From an uncultured Acidobacteriota bacterium (GTDB lineage: Bacteria; Acidobacteriota; Terriglobia; Acidiferrales; UBA7541), in NCBI GenBank assembly GCA_963702125.1, contig OY969716.1, positions 2,515,606-2,579,605 on the forward strand: 64,000 nt of DNA, read 5' to 3'. Below are positions 370-47,579 of this stretch, piece after piece. Made by a program: the position numbers and the translations under genes. The stretch's first letter is position 1; the number at the start of each line of letters is the position of its first letter. The notes beneath the pieces are model-generated. The model was not told the origin of the DNA. It did no database searches and saw only the letters and a program-made list of their open reading frames with translations.

Positions 370-993
370 TTAATATTTGCGAAGAACGCCAACCACGCGC
401 CCCTGAATCTTCACATCCGCCGCCGCCACCATAATCGGCGACATCGTTGAGTTCGCCGGCTGCAACCGCACCTTACCACCCGGCTCGCGATAGAAACGCT
501 TCACCGTCGCGTCGTCCTCGCCCACCAGCGCCACCACAATCTCGCCCGGATTCGCCACCTGCGTCGATTCCACCACGATGTAATCTCCGTCCAGGATGTG
601 ATCGTCGCGCATCGATTCGCCCTTCACCTGCAGCACGTACGTTCCCTGTCCGCGCGAAAAGTCCGCGAGCGAAATCGTCTCGTTCACTTCCACCGCTTCC
701 AGCGGACGGCCTGCAGCGATGCGGCCCGCAAGCGGCAGCTCGGACACCTGGCGGTCGAGCACCTGCTCGCGCACCGACTTCGGCAGCTGCAAAATCTCAA
801 TCGAGCGGCTCTGATTATAGCCGCGGCGCACGAAGCCCTTCTTCTCGAGCGTCGAAAGGTGCTTGTGCACGGTCGCGAGCGACGTCAGCTTCAGCGCGTG
901 CGCGATCTCCTCGAAACTCGGCGAGTAGCCGTTCTTGTTCAAAAATCCTACCAGGTAGTTGAGTACTTCTTTTTGCCGCTTCGTTAACGCCAT
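370..993 (-). CDS. lexA: LexA repressor (SOS regulator, S24 self-cleaving peptidase)
   Basis: 207 aa. The N-terminal winged HTH reads LTKRQKEVLNYL...SFEEIA. The C-terminal S24 region has VKGESM (catalytic Ser) and TVKRF (Lys). Confidence 0.95.
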   Translation of the reverse strand: MALTKRQKEVLNYLVGFLNKNGYSPSFEEIAHALKLTSLATVHKHLSTLEKKGFVRRGYNQSRSIEILQLPKSVREQVLDRQVSELPLAGRIAAGRPLEAVEVNETISLADFSRGQGTYVLQVKGESMRDDHILDGDYIVVESTQVANPGEIVVALVGEDDATVKRFYREPGGKVRLQPANSTMSPIMVAAADVKIQGRVVGVLRKY

Positions 994-1033
994 CGAACGC
1001 CCCTTTGGGTCGCAGTATCTAGCGCCACTATGG

Positions 1034-1051
1034 GCGAATCAAAAGCGAAAG
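1034..1051 (-). promoter_or_regulatory. Candidate LexA operator in the lexA promoter (direct repeat TTCGC-N6-TTCGC)
   Basis: The gene strand reads TTGAC-TTTCGCTTTTGATTCGCC-CATAGT. The repeat fills the 17-nt spacer between a -35-like TTGACT and a -10-like CATAGT, 41-58 nt upstream of the lexA ATG. Near-identical copies occur at 11171-11188 and 44500-44516. Confidence 0.45.
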
Positions 1052-1124
1052 TCAATGGTACTTAGGGACAGTTGCCCTTTTTATTTTTCAGTCCTAAAGG
1101 GCTATGGGTGTGGAACACGGGGAC

Positions 1125-7046: not shown

Positions 7047-8414
7047 CTACTGGTTGGATGTAGGCGCCGGAAACGGCGTAGCGACGGCGTTATTACTCGC
7101 AACCGCCGGCGTATTGTGCGCAGCACTCAGCGGCGGCATGATCGCATCCGCCGAATCTCGCGCCTCCGCAAACGCCGTCATGTCGCGCTTCGAAATCGGA
7201 TCACTCGGCGGCAGCGGCAGCCGCTCAAAATTCACAAAGTCCTTCCCCTTCTGAATCCGGAAATCGAGATGCGGCCCCGTCGCAAGGCCCGTCATCCCCA
7301 CAAGCCCGATCGTCTCGCCCTGCGCCACGTGCTCGCCGTTGTGAATCAGAATCCGCGAAAGGTGCATGTAGTACGTCGTGTATCCGTTCGTGTGCTGAAT
7401 CTCGATCAAGTTTCCCGCGCCGCCCTTCGGCCCCGCCCAGATCACGCGCCCTTCGCCAATCGTCTGCACCGGCGTGCCAGTCGGCGCCGCGTAATCGATT
7501 CCCAAATGCGGCCGGTATTCCTTCAAAATCGGATGGAAGCGCGCGTTTGAAAAGTGCGAAGTGATCACCGCCTGAAATTTCAGCGGCGAATGCAGAAACG
7601 CTTTCTTCATCGAGTGCCCGTCCGGCGTGTAATACGCAGGCGCGCCCGTCGGATCGTGGAACAGCACCGCGCGATACGTCCGCGGTCCGTTGTTGTACTC
7701 CGCCATCAAAATTTTCCCGTACGAACTGGTCTCGCCATTCGCGAGGATCTTCTTCTCCACCACCACGCGAAACGTGTCGCCTGGCCGCGGGTCCGTGTAG
7801 AAATCGAGGTCCCATCCAAAAATATCCGCGAGCCGCATCGCCAGTTCCGGCCGTTCGCCCGCATCGATCACCGCGTTGAAAAGCGATCCATGCACCTCGC
7901 CCGCCACGCCCTTTGTCGCCGTCTCGGACGGTATCGTCTGCACTTCGGCATGAAAGTCCGAGTGAGAGCCTCCGCCAGATGCCGAAGCCGCCGCAGGCGT
8001 GATGTGCAGCACGCGGTCCGCGTCGATGCGGTACCGAATCTCGCGCAACTCGCCCATCACCGTGCGACCCACCGAAAGCTGATTCCCCGCGCGCAAATGC
8101 CTCAAATCAAATACCGACTGCGCCGACGCCACCGCACGCGCCGCCAACTCCGGCGCCATCCCCAAATCCTGCAGCAACGCGTTGAACGGATGCCCGGCCG
8201 GCACAATCTTGTCCGTGAAAACCACCACGTTATCCTGGAAGCGATGCGTCTCCACGTGCGACGCCGCGATTTCCGAACTCAAATCCGCTTCCGCCGCCGA
8301 TCGCACGCGCATGGAATACAAAATCGTCGCAGCCGCGGCCACGATCAACACGCACCAAAGCGCCACGCGCACCGCGGTTGGCACCCGGCTTAGTTTCGTT
8401 TCCGTTTCCATCAT
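7047..8414 (-). CDS. M23 family metallopeptidase (peptidoglycan endopeptidase) with N-terminal membrane anchor
   Basis: HLGIDYAAPTGTPV ... YYMHLS ... GLVGMTGLATGPHLDFRI are the M23 HxxxD and HxH motifs. I place the start at the MMETETK methionines (8414), not the track's 8534. Confidence 0.85.
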   Translation of the reverse strand: MMETETKLSRVPTAVRVALWCVLIVAAAATILYSMRVRSAAEADLSSEIAASHVETHRFQDNVVVFTDKIVPAGHPFNALLQDLGMAPELAARAVASAQSVFDLRHLRAGNQLSVGRTVMGELREIRYRIDADRVLHITPAAASASGGGSHSDFHAEVQTIPSETATKGVAGEVHGSLFNAVIDAGERPELAMRLADIFGWDLDFYTDPRPGDTFRVVVEKKILANGETSSYGKILMAEYNNGPRTYRAVLFHDPTGAPAYYTPDGHSMKKAFLHSPLKFQAVITSHFSNARFHPILKEYRPHLGIDYAAPTGTPVQTIGEGRVIWAGPKGGAGNLIEIQHTNGYTTYYMHLSRILIHNGEHVAQGETIGLVGMTGLATGPHLDFRIQKGKDFVNFERLPLPPSDPISKRDMTAFAEARDSADAIMPPLSAAHNTPAVASNNAVATPFPAPTSNQ

Positions 8415-8573
8415 GTATGGCCAACGAGAATAGCAAGGGCGAAGGATTCGCGAAAAGAGAAATGGGACGAAATGCGCAAGCGAGTAAACCCCGATCAAGA
8501 TCGCGCAACGACGCGACTCCGACTCAACATTCACGCCAAATTTTTGAAGGAGATTAAACCACTCAATACAAAT

Positions 8574-9686
8574 TTACTGCGACGCGCCCGCAGGCATCGA
8601 CTGCGCCCGCTGCGCATTCTCGGCGAAATAATTCTTCTCGCGCAGCCCGTGATAAATCTGCCCGGCGATTCCCGAAGCCCGCGGCCCGCTCACCGAACGC
8701 GACCCGCCGCGAATCAGCACCACCAGCACGATTTTCGGATGCGCCTGGTCCGCGTACGAAACGAACCACCCGAGCCGCCCGCCGAGATTTTCGTCATTGC
8801 ACGTTCCGGTTTTTCCCAGCGACTGCTCGCCGTCCGGATCGTAGCTGCGCTTCGCCGTGCCGTACATCACCGCCGCCAGCATGCCTTCGCGCAAGTCCGG
8901 CAAGAGCGGCGCGATGTCCAGCTGCTGCTTCACGCGCGGGGTGAAATTCTCGCGCTCCGCTGAAGTGCGCGGGTACTGCAAATAATACTGTGTACCGCCA
9001 TTCGCGAGTGTGGCCACAAGCGACGCGAGTTGCAGCGGCGTCAAACGAATCCCTTCGCCGAAGCTCGACATGCGGCGCACGCCGCCATACGCCGGAGGCG
9101 CCGACGGTAGAAATCCCGGCTGTTCCTCGGGAATGTTGTAGCCCGCGCGCTGTCCGAGTCCCACTTCCGTCGCGTAGTTGTGCACGCGCGAAAATCCCAA
9201 TTCGCTGCCCACTTCCTCAAAATAAGTATTGTTCGAGTGCGCCATCGCCTCGGTCAAATCCATATACTTGCGGCGCCCGATCTTCAGCATCGTGTCGCGC
9301 GTGATCACGCCTTCTTCCAGGCCCGCCAGCGCGATCACCGGCTTGATCGTCGAGCACGGTTCGAAGCCCGACGAAAACGCCATCTTCTGATTCACGATTG
9401 TCAGGATGCGTCCGGTCGAAGGATCCATCGCCAGCACCGAGCCGTTCGAATGGCCGAGCGCATCAATCGCGAGTTGACGAATGACCGGATCGTCGTAGTC
9501 GGCCACGTCGCCCTTCGTGGGATCGACGGCCTTGTCCACGGTTCCGCGATGGTGTTTCTTCGAAGATGATTTTGTTGGAGTGCTGGCGGCAGGAATCGGA
9601 GCTGCTACGGCTGTGTTGGCCGCGCCGCTGACGAAAAATGAAAGCACAATTGCGAGAAACTGCGCTGAAGCTGGCTTGCGTCGCAT
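8574..9686 (-). CDS. Secreted penicillin-binding transpeptidase-domain protein
   Basis: Signal peptide, then the three motifs STIKP (SxxK), HSNN (SxN) and KTGT. At 370 aa it has no N-terminal dimerisation domain. Confidence 0.75.
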   Translation of the reverse strand: MRRKPASAQFLAIVLSFFVSGAANTAVAAPIPAASTPTKSSSKKHHRGTVDKAVDPTKGDVADYDDPVIRQLAIDALGHSNGSVLAMDPSTGRILTIVNQKMAFSSGFEPCSTIKPVIALAGLEEGVITRDTMLKIGRRKYMDLTEAMAHSNNTYFEEVGSELGFSRVHNYATEVGLGQRAGYNIPEEQPGFLPSAPPAYGGVRRMSSFGEGIRLTPLQLASLVATLANGGTQYYLQYPRTSAERENFTPRVKQQLDIAPLLPDLREGMLAAVMYGTAKRSYDPDGEQSLGKTGTCNDENLGGRLGWFVSYADQAHPKIVLVVLIRGGSRSVSGPRASGIAGQIYHGLREKNYFAENAQRAQSMPAGASQ

Positions 9687-9834
9687 CTAAGTCGTTTGGC
9701 CCTGCGCCGCCTGATTTCCGGCGCGATTGACTTAGTTTAAGGAAATGTTACGGCGCTGTGCAACTTCATTTGAGGCTAGCGTTCGAGAAAGCTACGCCTG
9801 ACCTTCCGTACAGTTCAGATTTTCTCAAAAAGAG

Positions 9835-9870
9835 AAACGGCGAAGGGCCTCGAAGGGCTCTTCGCCGTTT
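9835..9870 (-). terminator. recA rho-independent terminator (bidirectional hairpin)
   Basis: 11-bp stem AAACGGCGAAG / CTTCGCCGTTT, with T-runs on both strands. It lies 28 nt downstream of the recA stop. Confidence 0.6.
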
Positions 9871-9897
9871 TTATTCTGAGCCGTAAGCAGTGAAGCG

Positions 9898-11064
9898 TTA
9901 GCGCGACGAGCGCGAGCCGCCGCCGGCCGATGCCGCCTTGGCCGCCGTTTTCGCAGCTTCCGGCGCCACCTTGTGCGCATCGCCGTTCGGCTTGTGCGCG
10001 CCTTCCGCCTTCGCTGAGCCGTTGGCTTCCGCTTTTGCGGCTGTGCCATTCGTCTCGGCGCCGGCATGCGTGTTCGGCAGGCCGAGATGCTTGCGCAGCT
10101 CCTGCTCCATCTTGTTGCGGATATCGTGATTGTCCTTCAGGAACTGGCGCGCGTTGTCGCGGCCCTGTCCCAGCCGGTCCGTCTTGTACGAAATCCACGT
10201 GCCGGACTTCTCGAGGATGCCCGCGTTCACGCCGACGTCGATCAGGTCGCCTTCCCGCGAAACGCCTTCGCCATAAATAATGTCGAACTCGGCTTCGCGG
10301 AACGGCGCCGCCACCTTGTTCTTCACGATCTTGGCGCGCGTGCGCGAACCTACTACGCGATCCCCTTCCTTGATCGATTGCACGCGGCGAATATCCACGC
10401 GCACCGAAGCGTAGAACTTCAGCGCGCGGCCGCCCGTCGTCGTCTCCGGATTGCCAAACATCACGCCGATCTTTTCGCGGATCTGGTTGATGAAGATCAA
10501 GCAGGTGCGCGACTTCGCCACGATGCCCGTCAACTTGCGCAGCGCCTGGGACATCAAGCGCGCCTGCAACCCCATCTGCGCGTCGCCCATGTCGCCTTCG
10601 AGTTCAGCGCGTGGAACGAGCGCCGCCACCGAGTCCACCACGATGATGTCCACCGCGTTCGAACGGATCAGCGCTTCGGCGATTTCCAGCGCCTGTTCTC
10701 CATTGTCCGGCTGCGACACCAGCATATTGTCAACGTCCACTCCGAGCTTGCGCGCATAGACGGGATCGAGCGCGTGTTCCGCGTCGATGAACGCCGCTTG
10801 TCCGCCCAGCTTCTGCGCTTCGGCGATCACGTGCAGCGTGAGCGTCGTCTTACCGCCGGATTCCGGTCCGTACACTTCAATCACGCGTCCGCGTGGAAAG
10901 CCGCCCACTCCGAGAGCGGAGTCGATCGAAATCGAGCCGGTTGGAATCACACTCACGGGAACAAGAACGTCCTTGTTGCCCAGCCGCATGATCGAGCCCT
11001 TGCCGTACTGTTTCTCAATTTGAGAAATCGCGAGATCCAAATTCTTTGTTTTTTCGTCAGTCAT
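9898..11064 (-). CDS. recA: Recombinase RecA with an Ala/Lys/Gly-rich C-terminal tail
   Basis: 388 aa with Walker [10 protein letters not shown] and a full RecA core. It ends in a ~55-aa low-complexity tail. Confidence 0.97.
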
Positions 11065-11170
11065 CGAAGTGCCACCTCTGAAGTGTGTTGCGATTTAGCT
11101 GGGGTTGGGGGCTGCCAGAGTGTAACACCGCGCCCGGTGTCCCGCCATTTCTAGGGGCAGCGTAGCATAG

Positions 11171-11188
11171 GCGAAGATAAGGCGAAAG
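11171..11188 (-). promoter_or_regulatory. Candidate LexA operator in the recA promoter
   Basis: The gene strand reads GACC-TTTCGCCTTATCTTCGCC-TATGCT, the same TTCGC-N6-TTCGC period-11 repeat as at lexA. A -10-like TATGCT follows it, and it lies 107-124 nt upstream of the recA ATG. Confidence 0.4.
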
Positions 11189-44499: not shown

Positions 44500-44516
44500 C
44501 TTCGCTTTAGATTCGC
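44500..44516 (+). promoter_or_regulatory. Candidate LexA operator upstream of the helicase-nuclease gene
   Basis: GACG-CTTCGCTTTAGATTCGCC-CT lies 61-77 nt upstream of the ATG. It matches the gene-strand lexA site at 15 of 17 positions. Confidence 0.4.
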
Positions 44517-44576
44517 CCTTGGCGTTTCTGATAGACTGACGAGGCAGCCAACAGCGCGGACCGCGAAAAAGAGACG

Positions 44577-47500
44577 ATGAGCGACGCGAAGACAAACGAA
44601 ATTGGGTTGAATGCCGCGCAGCGTGCGGCAGTGGAGCATGTCGATGGTCCACTGCTTGTGGTGGCTGGCGCCGGTACCGGCAAGACGCGCGTGATCATCG
44701 AGCGCATCCGGACGCTGCTGGAATCGCAACCGCACCTCACCGGCGAAAATATTCTGGGGCTGACGTTCACCGATAAGGCAGCCGGCGAAATGACGTCGCG
44801 CGTTAAAAAGGCCATCGGCGAACGCGCTGAAGGCTTATCGCTGAGCACGTTCCACAAATTCTGCCTCGATAAAATCCTCAAAACCGTGCGGCCGGACGTG
44901 CAAGCGATCGAGCCGATCGACTACCGGATTTTGCTACGACGAAACATCGCCGAGCTGGACCTGAAACACTTCCGGCGCTTGCAGGATCCGGGCGAGTTCA
45001 TTGGCGATTTCGAGGGCTTTTTTTCGCGATGCCAGGACGAATTGGTCTCGCCGGACGATTACGAGAAATTTGCAGCGGAGATGCGGAGGAATCACGAGGC
45101 GACGCGGGCGGAGCTCGAAGCCGACGCTCTGGACGAAGCAGAGCTGGAAGTGGCGAAGCAGGAAGAGCTGGCGCGCGTGTACCGCGTGAGTGAGCGCTTG
45201 CTGCGCGAACGGAACTTGCTCACCTTTGGCGCGCAGATCGCGGAGTCCGTGGCCGCGCTGAAGAACGATCCTGAGCTGCGCGCGAAAGTGCGCGACCAGT
45301 ATAAATACATTTTGGTGGATGAATTCCAGGATACGAACATCGCGCAGCTTGAACTGCTGTGGCTGCTCGCGGGCGAGCACCGCAACATCGTCGCGGTGGG
45401 CGACGACGACCAGGCGATCTACCGTTTCCGCGGCGCGTCATTCGGCAGCTTCACGATTTTTCTGGAGCGCTTCTGCGGAGTGACCGGCGCGAAGAACGCG
45501 CCGAAGGCCGGCGACTTCCTCGTATCGCTTTCGCAAAACTACCGCTCCACGAAGCGGATTCTGCGCGTTGCGGGCAAGCTGATCTCCCACAACGAAAAAT
45601 CGCCGCTGCTGCCGAAGAAAAATCTGGCGACCGAAAACATCGAGGGCGAGCGCGTGCGCATCGCTGAGTTTGGCGCAGCGAATGAAGAAGCGGAATGGGT
45701 GGCGGGCGAGATCGAGCGGCTTCACGAGAAAGGCGTGCAGTGGCGGTCGATCGCGGTGCTTTACCGCAAGCACACGCACCGCAGCGACCTGCTGAGCGTG
45801 CTGCGACGGCGCGAGATTCCGTTTGTGATCAAGAAGTTTTCGATTCTGACGAGCACGATCGTCAAGGATCTGTTCGCCTGGCTGCGAATCACCGGCAAGC
45901 CGCGCGACAACGTGGCGTGGGCGCGCGTGCTGGGGGCCCCGTACTGGGGGCTCGAGCCGAAGGACCTGGTGCGGCTGGCGGAGCGCGCGGCGAAGAACAA
46001 GCGGCCGCTTGGCGACGAAGTTGCAGTCTCGAAAGACGAAGCGCCGTTCAACCGCGAAGGGGTGCGGTTGGGCGAACTGGTCGCGCTGCTCGAAACGCTG
46101 CGCGCCAGCTCGTGGCGGAAAGTGGCGACCGAGCTAGTGGACGAATTGATCCAAGGGCTGGGCCTCGCGCCGCTGCCGACGGACCAGGACCGCTACTATC
46201 TCGAGCGGTTCGCGAGCTTCGTGAAGGATTGGCAGCGCAAGAGCGAAGGCAAGAAGCTTGCCGACTTTCTCGAATACCTCGAATATTTTTACGAAGCGGG
46301 CGGCGACGTGTGTCTCGAAGAGGAAATGACGGACGACGCGGTAAACCTGATGACGGTGCACGCGGCGAAGGGACTCGAATTCCCGCACGTTTTTATTTTG
46401 CGGCTCACGCATCGCGACTTCCCTTCCGGCGCGCGCAAGCCGGTGTTCGAATTCCCGAGCGAGTTGATGAAGGAGCAGCAGCCGCAGTTCGATTACCAGC
46501 GCGAGGAAGAACGCCGGCTTTTTTACGTGGCGCTCACGCGCGCGAGGCAACGGCTGACGCTTTCGACGGTGCTGAACAAGCGGCTGAAACTTTCGCCGTT
46601 CTTCGAGGATTTCCTGGAGGACGCGAAGATCAAGCAGCAGGACGTGCATCAATTCGAAGCGAAGGTGGATCTGCCCGCGCTGCCGGAGACGACGGGTCCC
46701 GAAGCGAACACGGCGGTGCCGACGCAACTCTTCGGGCCCGCGAGCGAGACGACGCGGGCGTATTCGCGCGTAGCCATATGGGCGAAAGCGTTTCACCCGC
46801 CGCGACCGGAGCCGCTGCAACTGAGTTCATCGGCGATCGATTGCTACGAGCGCTGCCCGCAGAAATACCTGTTCCAGTATTCGTGGTCGATTCCGGGCGG
46901 GCCGCACGCGATGGCGACGTTTGGAAACGTGATGCACACAACCGTGCGCGAAATGGTGGAAGAGATAGGCAAGCGCAAGAAAATCACGCTCGCGGAAGTG
47001 AATGCGATTTACGACCGGCACTGGTCGGACTCGGGCTTTATCGACGAATACCACAAAGAGGAATACAAGAAGGAAGGACGGCGGCAGATCGAGGAATTCT
47101 GGAGGAAATACTCAGCGGCTCCGGCGGATGTGGTCCATCTCGAAAAGAAATTCGAGCTGCCGATGGATAACGACGTGATCGTCACGGGGCGTATCGACCA
47201 GATCAACCGGATCAACGGAAAGAAAGTCGAGATCATCGACTACAAAACCGGCAAAGCGAAAGACAAGAAAGCGGCAGCAAAGGATCTGCAACTCGGCATC
47301 TACGCGCTCGCGGCGGAAGAAATTCTGGAACTGAAACCGGAGAAGCTGGTGCTGTACAGCCTGACCTCGAACGAAGCGGTGGAATCGACGCGCGACGCGA
47401 AGGCGCTGAAGGAAACCCGGGAGCGGATCGCGGAGGTCGCGGACTTGATTCGCGCGCGTGATTTCAACGCAAAACCCGGCTTTGGCTGCAAGTTTTGCGA

Positions 47501-47579
47501 CTACAAGCCGATTTGCCCGTCGCATGAGCAGTTGGTTTCGATTCGCGGCGCGGCCGATACGGCGATCGCCGAAAACTAA
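44577..47579 (+). CDS. UvrD/PcrA-type superfamily-1 helicase fused to a C-terminal PD-(D/E)XK (RecB/Cas4-like) nuclease
   Basis: 1000 aa. Walker A is GAGTGKT, motif II is VDEFQDT, and further helicase motifs include VHAAKGLEF. The C-terminal about 250 aa carry YERCPQKY, GRIDQI, EIIDYKTGK and CKFCDYKPICP (four Cys). Confidence 0.85.
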   Translation: MSDAKTNEIGLNAAQRAAVEHVDGPLLVVAGAGTGKTRVIIERIRTLLESQPHLTGENILGLTFTDKAAGEMTSRVKKAIGERAEGLSLSTFHKFCLDKILKTVRPDVQAIEPIDYRILLRRNIAELDLKHFRRLQDPGEFIGDFEGFFSRCQDELVSPDDYEKFAAEMRRNHEATRAELEADALDEAELEVAKQEELARVYRVSERLLRERNLLTFGAQIAESVAALKNDPELRAKVRDQYKYILVDEFQDTNIAQLELLWLLAGEHRNIVAVGDDDQAIYRFRGASFGSFTIFLERFCGVTGAKNAPKAGDFLVSLSQNYRSTKRILRVAGKLISHNEKSPLLPKKNLATENIEGERVRIAEFGAANEEAEWVAGEIERLHEKGVQWRSIAVLYRKHTHRSDLLSVLRRREIPFVIKKFSILTSTIVKDLFAWLRITGKPRDNVAWARVLGAPYWGLEPKDLVRLAERAAKNKRPLGDEVAVSKDEAPFNREGVRLGELVALLETLRASSWRKVATELVDELIQGLGLAPLPTDQDRYYLERFASFVKDWQRKSEGKKLADFLEYLEYFYEAGGDVCLEEEMTDDAVNLMTVHAAKGLEFPHVFILRLTHRDFPSGARKPVFEFPSELMKEQQPQFDYQREEERRLFYVALTRARQRLTLSTVLNKRLKLSPFFEDFLEDAKIKQQDVHQFEAKVDLPALPETTGPEANTAVPTQLFGPASETTRAYSRVAIWAKAFHPPRPEPLQLSSSAIDCYERCPQKYLFQYSWSIPGGPHAMATFGNVMHTTVREMVEEIGKRKKITLAEVNAIYDRHWSDSGFIDEYHKEEYKKEGRRQIEEFWRKYSAAPADVVHLEKKFELPMDNDVIVTGRIDQINRINGKKVEIIDYKTGKAKDKKAAAKDLQLGIYALAAEEILELKPEKLVLYSLTSNEAVESTRDAKALKETRERIAEVADLIRARDFNAKPGFGCKFCDYKPICPSHEQLVSIRGAADTAIAEN

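Follow-up and report, generated by a model that had tools for sequence, protein, structure and literature searches.

LexA is a textbook case of a regulator that has exchanged its binding motif time and again in evolution, and every newly defined LexA motif helps to reconstruct how this motif has evolved. The direct repeat GTTC-N7-GTTC, with a period of 11 nt, is the LexA box of Alphaproteobacteria (PMC3323433, PMC8565304, PMC12700426). An example of this box, GTTCCATATAAGTTC, precedes the lexA gene of Sphingomonas, in whose promoter the classic alphaproteobacterial form reads GTTCCATATAAGTTCC. The GTTC-N7-GTTC box has reportedly been described for Acidobacterium capsulatum as well, in the study of Mazon et al. 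2006 (Microbiology 152:1109). In the Gram-positive Cheo box, CGAAC-N4-GTTCG, the half-sites are inverted and separated by a 4-nt gap, and boxes of this type precede the Bacillus lexA gene. Another direct-repeat LexA motif, TTACACATATTTTWTACATA, has been defined in Balneolaeota by comparative genomics and confirmed by EMSA, and the LexA regulon of this group includes lexA, recA and a helicase (PMC7739468). In a literature search, TTCGC direct repeats were not linked to LexA in any paper found, and no SOS regulon for Acidobacteriota was found beyond the 2006 study.

The window analysed here, a 64,000-nt stretch of DNA from an uncultured bacterium of the acidobacterial order Acidiferrales, contains three perfect copies of the 17-nt sequence TTCGCYTYNNNTTCGCC, all of them intergenic, which face lexA, recA and a gene for a UvrD-type helicase/PD-(D/E)XK nuclease. 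The motif consists of two TTCGC half-sites in the same orientation, with a period of 11 nt (one helical turn), separated by a T-rich spacer in which one T is fixed, and the aligned sites of relatives give the consensus TTCGC-Y-T-Y-N3-TTCGCC. The three copies lie at 1033..1049 on the (-) strand before lexA (TTCGCTTTTGATTCGCC, two TTCGC half-sites 11 nt apart), at 11170..11186 on the (-) strand before recA (TTCGCCTTATCTTCGCC) and at 44501..44517 on the (+) strand before the helicase-nuclease gene (TTCGCTTTAGATTCGCC). We propose, with a probability of roughly 85% and on the basis of sequence comparison, that this motif is the SOS operator (LexA box) of the Acidiferrales lineage. The initial annotation had quoted the three sites and named the three genes that they precede; the sequences are found as quoted at lexA, recA and the helicase gene, and Pfam and NCBIfam agree on the gene identities. 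The aligned sites of relatives also match its description of the core, in which TTC is retained and continued by GC, whereas the 5' G of GTTC is not conserved. The GAC that it had aligned 5' of each site has to be dropped, since in relatives this triplet lies outside the motif and is unconserved beyond lexA, where it belongs to the -35 box.

Could a short repeat have come to stand in three intergenic regions by chance? The bare repeat TTCGC-N6-TTCGC leaves some room for this explanation, as its enrichment within the window is only marginal (four matches against 1.15 expected, with 5 of 100 shuffles reaching four). The full motif refutes it, however: TTCGCYTYNNNTTCGCC with at most one mismatch has exactly three matches in the window against 0.40 expected, none of 100 shuffles reaches three, and the site recurs in every related lexA and recA promoter that could be compared, as detailed below. 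Chance co-occurrence is therefore given practically no weight. Window matches to the extended consensus with two mismatches all lie within ORFs, and Rfam and tRNA scans of the window gave no matches.

The lexA gene (370..993, (-) strand) encodes a presumed repressor of 207 aa with LexA_DNA_bind and Peptidase_S24 domains, which scores 203.5 bits against NCBIfam TIGR00498 (cut-off 111). The cleavage site Ala94-Gly95 and the catalytic residues Ser127 and Lys165 are all present, and A94, G95, S127 and K165 are invariant in an alignment with the LexA proteins of E. coli and Sphingomonas. The encoded protein is a genuine LexA of the cleavable type. The sequence of its recognition helix, SLATVHKH(L/I), does not vary among 120 homologues that otherwise diverge to an overall identity of 76%, much as the DNA motif stays unchanged. 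The gene is preceded by a sigma-70-type promoter (1027..1055, (-) strand) composed of TTGACT (1055-1050), a 17-nt spacer and CATAGT (1032-1027), and a strict sigma-70 scan finds this one promoter at lexA against 0.1 expected in shuffles. That the repeat fills the spacer between TTGACT and CATAGT had been remarked at the outset, and the coincidence is indeed exact. With at most one mismatch, the motif is present in 82 of 82 lexA promoters, and in 80 of 80 related promoters of this gene the exact repeat TTCGC-N6-TTCGC is flanked by a TTGAC -35 box on one side and a -10 box on the other, both of which are kept while the leader and the upstream DNA vary freely. The repeat TTCGC-N6-TTCGC is also present at the lexA gene of locus L182, the product of which is 76% identical.

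The exact fit into the lexA spacer, together with the T-rich stretch between the half-sites, might suggest that what is conserved is promoter architecture only (a spacer, an UP-like or discriminator element, or DNA shape) and that no protein binds there. This explanation is very improbable, because sigma-70 spacers are not as a rule conserved in sequence and because four gene families without any relation to each other share the 17-mer, at varied distances from -35-like elements and in both orientations, while a motif scan of the window did not find it at the other promoters. Furthermore, in four related loci (L049, L072, L074 and L080) one base has been lost between the -35 box and the repeat, with the spacing of the repeat unchanged. 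Since this loss falls outside the repeat and the internal spacing is kept, the repeat is constrained as a unit and not as promoter filler.

A second conserved block lies just 5' of the lexA -35 box (window 1058-1071, (-) strand). It reads (A)CCTGTCC-N3-(A/G)GTAC(C/T)A, with variants of the form GTACAG(G)TG(A/T)CC-N3-AGTAC, and most of the 79 distinct lexA promoters compared from relatives have it. This CTGTCC-N3-RGTAC block has a single copy in the window and does not occur at the recA or helicase promoters; it could be the site of a second regulator or an UP-like element.

At recA (9898..11064, (-) strand; PF00154, E = 7e-140), the operator is directly followed by the -10-like box TATGCT (11169-11164) and lies about 105 nt before the gene start. 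Among recA promoters with enough upstream DNA, 35 of 35 (14 distinct sequences) have the site with at most one mismatch. In relatives it is located 100-169 nt before the start and mostly reads TTTGC-TTTTTS-TTCGCC, followed by a -10-like box. The motif is thus conserved upstream of lexA and recA orthologues alike, as had been anticipated for an SOS operator, and the flanking sequences have diverged. A possible third half-site, TACGC (11160..11164, (-) strand), continues the 11-nt period beyond the second half-site of recA; it is weak and shows partial conservation among relatives. The strict sigma-70 scan did not call a promoter at recA or at the helicase gene of the window. Within the recA leader, which is approximately 105 nt long, a hairpin-like element is conserved, CC(C/G)CCTAGAAATGGCGGG (window about 11135-11155, (-) strand); it is also present in L090 and matches no Rfam family.

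The third gene (44577..47579, (+) strand) encodes a protein of 1000 aa with UvrD-helicase, UvrD_C and PDDEXK_1 domains, i.e., a PcrA/UvrD-type SF1 helicase core with a C-terminal Cas4/AddB-like PD-(D/E)XK nuclease domain. Its operator is located in the gap of 81 nt that separates it from the upstream gene, and 60 nt lie between the operator and the ATG. Of 84 orthologous helicase promoters, which come from metagenomes and belong to genes with 49-72% protein identity, 41 have the site with at most one mismatch, among them orthologues as distant as 50% identity. In six helicase promoters (L106, L108, L110, L111, L112 and L118) the 17-mer runs in the reverse orientation and covers the -35 region (GGCGAAnnAAAAGCGTAA). 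The genes divergent from these sites are not conserved, and the opposite-strand site therefore probably serves the helicase gene, which could be controlled from either orientation. In four of these six promoters TTCCGC abuts the -10 box, and at that position L111 and L112 read TTTCACG and TTTCTGCG, respectively. A second UvrD-helicase/PD-(D/E)XK gene occurs in another Acidiferrales lineage (L179-L183, 2.4-5.7 kb region), about 4.5 kb upstream of recA, with split or frameshifted copies in L180 and L181. The operator was not recognisable at any examined member of this paralogue group.

An unbiased scan of all related DNA revealed a fourth target class, a PF05163 DinB-family gene of the Ca. Acidiferrum lineage, at which 13 of 17 promoters have the site with at most one mismatch and the promoter reads CTTGACA(A)-TTCGCYTTTTNTTCGCC-TANNAT. 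The window and the related loci together make up 2.40 Mb, in which the motif has 190 matches when one mismatch is allowed; 170 of these are found no more than 330 nt upstream of a member of the four families lexA, recA, helicase-nuclease and DinB-family damage-inducible gene. The remaining 20 are close to chance level (about 15 expected from shuffles). These counts are inflated by shared ancestry, because all relatives belong to a single order (Ca. Acidiferrales / Acidiferrum). The motif is therefore not spread at a similar density outside these four promoter classes, and the original proposal of a candidate SOS operator common to lexA, recA and the helicase-nuclease gene is supported by its density as well as by its conservation. 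In L142 (2581-3907) and sister loci of Ca. Acidiferrum, the DinB-family gene with the operator and a DUF1572/DinB_2 gene are transcribed away from each other, and the DUF1572/DinB_2 gene is followed by that for the helicase-nuclease. In another lineage (contig of P0073) a DinB_2 gene directly follows recA. Such placements near the helicase-nuclease gene and recA point to a repeated clustering of DinB-superfamily genes with SOS genes.

The sample behind these counts is narrow in its taxonomy. The genome scan yielded only Acidiferrales relatives, with at least 86% identity, and 80 assemblies, nearly all of which are labelled Acidobacteriota or Ca. Acidiferrales, encode a LexA that shares 86-96% identity with the window protein. 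Protein searches with RecA, a distant helicase and the 76%-identical LexA returned Acidiferrales-type proteins only, except for three deposit labels from other groups, and an acidobacterial lexA was not found in the plasmid collection. The contigs found with each query protein were near-identical, so that each look-up added one lineage. The regulon is drawn from four families only, in DNA that does not include uvrA, polymerase IV, imuA-imuB-dnaE2 or ruvAB, and clustering the genes that adjoin weaker intergenic sites gave no further solid family. The consensus has 14 specified bases, for which thousands of chance matches are expected in metagenomes or viral contigs. In this order of Acidobacteria, which is abundant in soil and peat and known here from metagenome assemblies only, the motif represents a precise, testable operator that permits SOS regulon prediction in hundreds of metagenome-assembled genomes. 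It also defines a first core regulon for the order, composed of lexA, recA, the helicase-nuclease gene, the DinB-family gene and perhaps an M23 peptidase.

The presence of the motif in the lexA, recA and helicase promoters and its retention across the order make it very probably a LexA site; that LexA is the protein that binds it, and that binding means repression, we infer from association with the motif, its position in the promoters and its conservation. The simplest model would be a standard SOS circuit in which LexA binds head-to-tail, as in alphaproteobacterial LexA. Because the half-sites are co-oriented and one helical turn apart, both lie on one face of the DNA, on which a LexA dimer would set its two winged-helix domains head-to-tail. 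The predicted operator either covers the -35/-10 spacer or adjoins the -10 box, as it does at recA, at the DinB-family gene and in many helicase promoters, where TAnnnT comes immediately after the second half-site. This position, exactly in the lexA spacer or against a -10-like box, is repressor geometry, and LexA bound over the spacer or at the -10 box would deny RNA polymerase access to the lexA, recA and helicase-nuclease promoters, as well as to that of the DinB-family gene in sister lineages. Upon DNA damage, RecA filaments would trigger self-cleavage of LexA at Ala94-Gly95, leading to derepression. The target set, consisting of lexA (autoregulation), recA, a recombination-type helicase-nuclease and the PF05163 DinB-family gene, is a classic SOS set.

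Direct repeats with a period of 10-11 nt are typically also read by winged-helix response regulators of the OmpR/PhoB type, and the motif might be the operator of such a protein, or of some other damage or stress regulator, with LexA binding elsewhere. The LexA assignment is one by association, and the CTGTCC-N3-RGTAC block at lexA could be a separate protein site. However, its location, either in the spacer of the promoter or at the -10 box, is that of a repressor and differs from the -35-proximal or upstream position of such activators, and the targets begin with lexA itself and recA in every genome. Moreover, both GTTC-N7-GTTC and GAAC-N4-GTTC are missing from these promoters, so that no other LexA operator of those two kinds is visible there. 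A regulator other than LexA is consequently considered unlikely.

Taken as a LexA operator, the Acidiferrales motif has much in common with the GTTC-N7-GTTC box, as both are direct repeats with an 11-nt period and a TTC in each half, located at lexA and recA promoters, and the Acidiferrales host and A. capsulatum are acidobacteria of one class. Its core nevertheless differs from the box published for that species. Among 36 lexA sites, the 5' G that precedes TTC in GTTC is found once in the first half and 11 times in the second half; it is also in the minority at the recA, helicase and DinB-family sites, and is absent before either TTCGC half-site in the three operators of the window. Conversely, the 3' GC (GCC in the second half) is invariant in the Acidiferrales motif and does not occur in the Sphingomonas form given above. 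Exact GTTC-N7-GTTC has four matches in the window against 2.8 expected, all of them in ORFs and none at SOS promoters. The motif would thus work like the alphaproteobacterial box but lacks its defining GTTC feature; it may be a lineage variant of that box, as the initial annotation had suggested. That TTCGC-N6-TTCGC is a new form of the known direct-repeat type of LexA operator is well supported. The Balneolaeota motif is likewise a direct repeat, but it is unrelated in sequence and comes from another phylum, and it has been confirmed by EMSA whereas the Acidiferrales motif is predicted.

The LexA protein itself also differs in some features from its alphaproteobacterial counterpart. The window LexA does not have the long linker insertion of alphaproteobacterial LexA, and its recognition helix reads SLATVHKHL against SKSGVHRLI in the alphaproteobacterial protein of Sphingomonas. 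The DNA-binding domain is 43% identical to that of Sphingomonas LexA and 43% identical to that of Bacillus LexA, and judged from its sequence the protein is not specifically alpha-like, with a recognition helix that looks more Gram-positive-like and resembles the Bacillus one (SLATVHKHLSTLEKKG in the window versus SSSTVHGHLARLETKG in Bacillus). The half-site core TTCG is also common to the Cheo box and the Acidiferrales motif (GTTCG versus TTCGC), although the Acidiferrales half-sites are arranged head-to-tail with a 6-nt gap and not inverted with a 4-nt gap as in Cheo boxes. GAAC-N4-GTTC has two matches in the window against 1.5 expected, neither of which is near lexA, recA or the helicase gene. 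These similarities allow the tentative, and on balance rather doubtful, suggestion that the motif is not a drifted GTTC-N7-GTTC box and arose independently, by re-arrangement of Gram-positive-type half-sites (with their TTCG core and a Bacillus-like helix) from head-to-head to head-to-tail. If this were true, LexA would have switched from a palindrome to a direct repeat more than once while keeping its half-site specificity, and lateral acquisition from Alphaproteobacteria by Acidobacteria would need to be revisited. With a Gram-positive-like helix and a site architecture that looks alphaproteobacterial, this LexA may represent a natural intermediate for the reading of direct repeats by a LexA dimer.

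A possible weaker operator lies in the window at 8438..8454 on the (-) strand (TTCGCGAATCCTTCGCC, with the fourth exact TTCGC-N6-TTCGC of the window at 8439-8454). It directly precedes a TGCTATTCT box (8435-8427) that belongs to an M23-peptidase gene and resembles the extended -10 box of recA promoters. The M23-peptidase ORF (7047-8534, (-) strand) is over-extended, as its homologues have 436-454 aa and the likely start is the ATG at 8414. The reading of 8439-8454 as a chance match inside this ORF was rejected because the homologues place the site in the promoter region. The same arrangement of a site and an adjoining TGCTATTCT-type box is found in L090 and L003, and a similar site (at most one core mismatch) occurs before the M23-peptidase gene in 13 of 32 distinct lineages, located 66-108 nt before the aligned gene region in about eight distinct promoters and elsewhere in three others. 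The M23-peptidase gene is therefore a possible fifth target with a weaker operator; an alternative reading of the site is a weak hairpin, GCGAA-TCC-TTCGC. This gene is also part of a row formed by recA, a gene for a PF00905 transpeptidase-domain protein and the gene for the Csd3_N2/M23 peptidase (window 7047-11064, (-) strand; L081-L096 and L179-L183), which is conserved both here and at the other recA loci compared, as far as their contigs extend over it. This gene order may be a sign that the damage response is connected with functions in the cell wall or in division.
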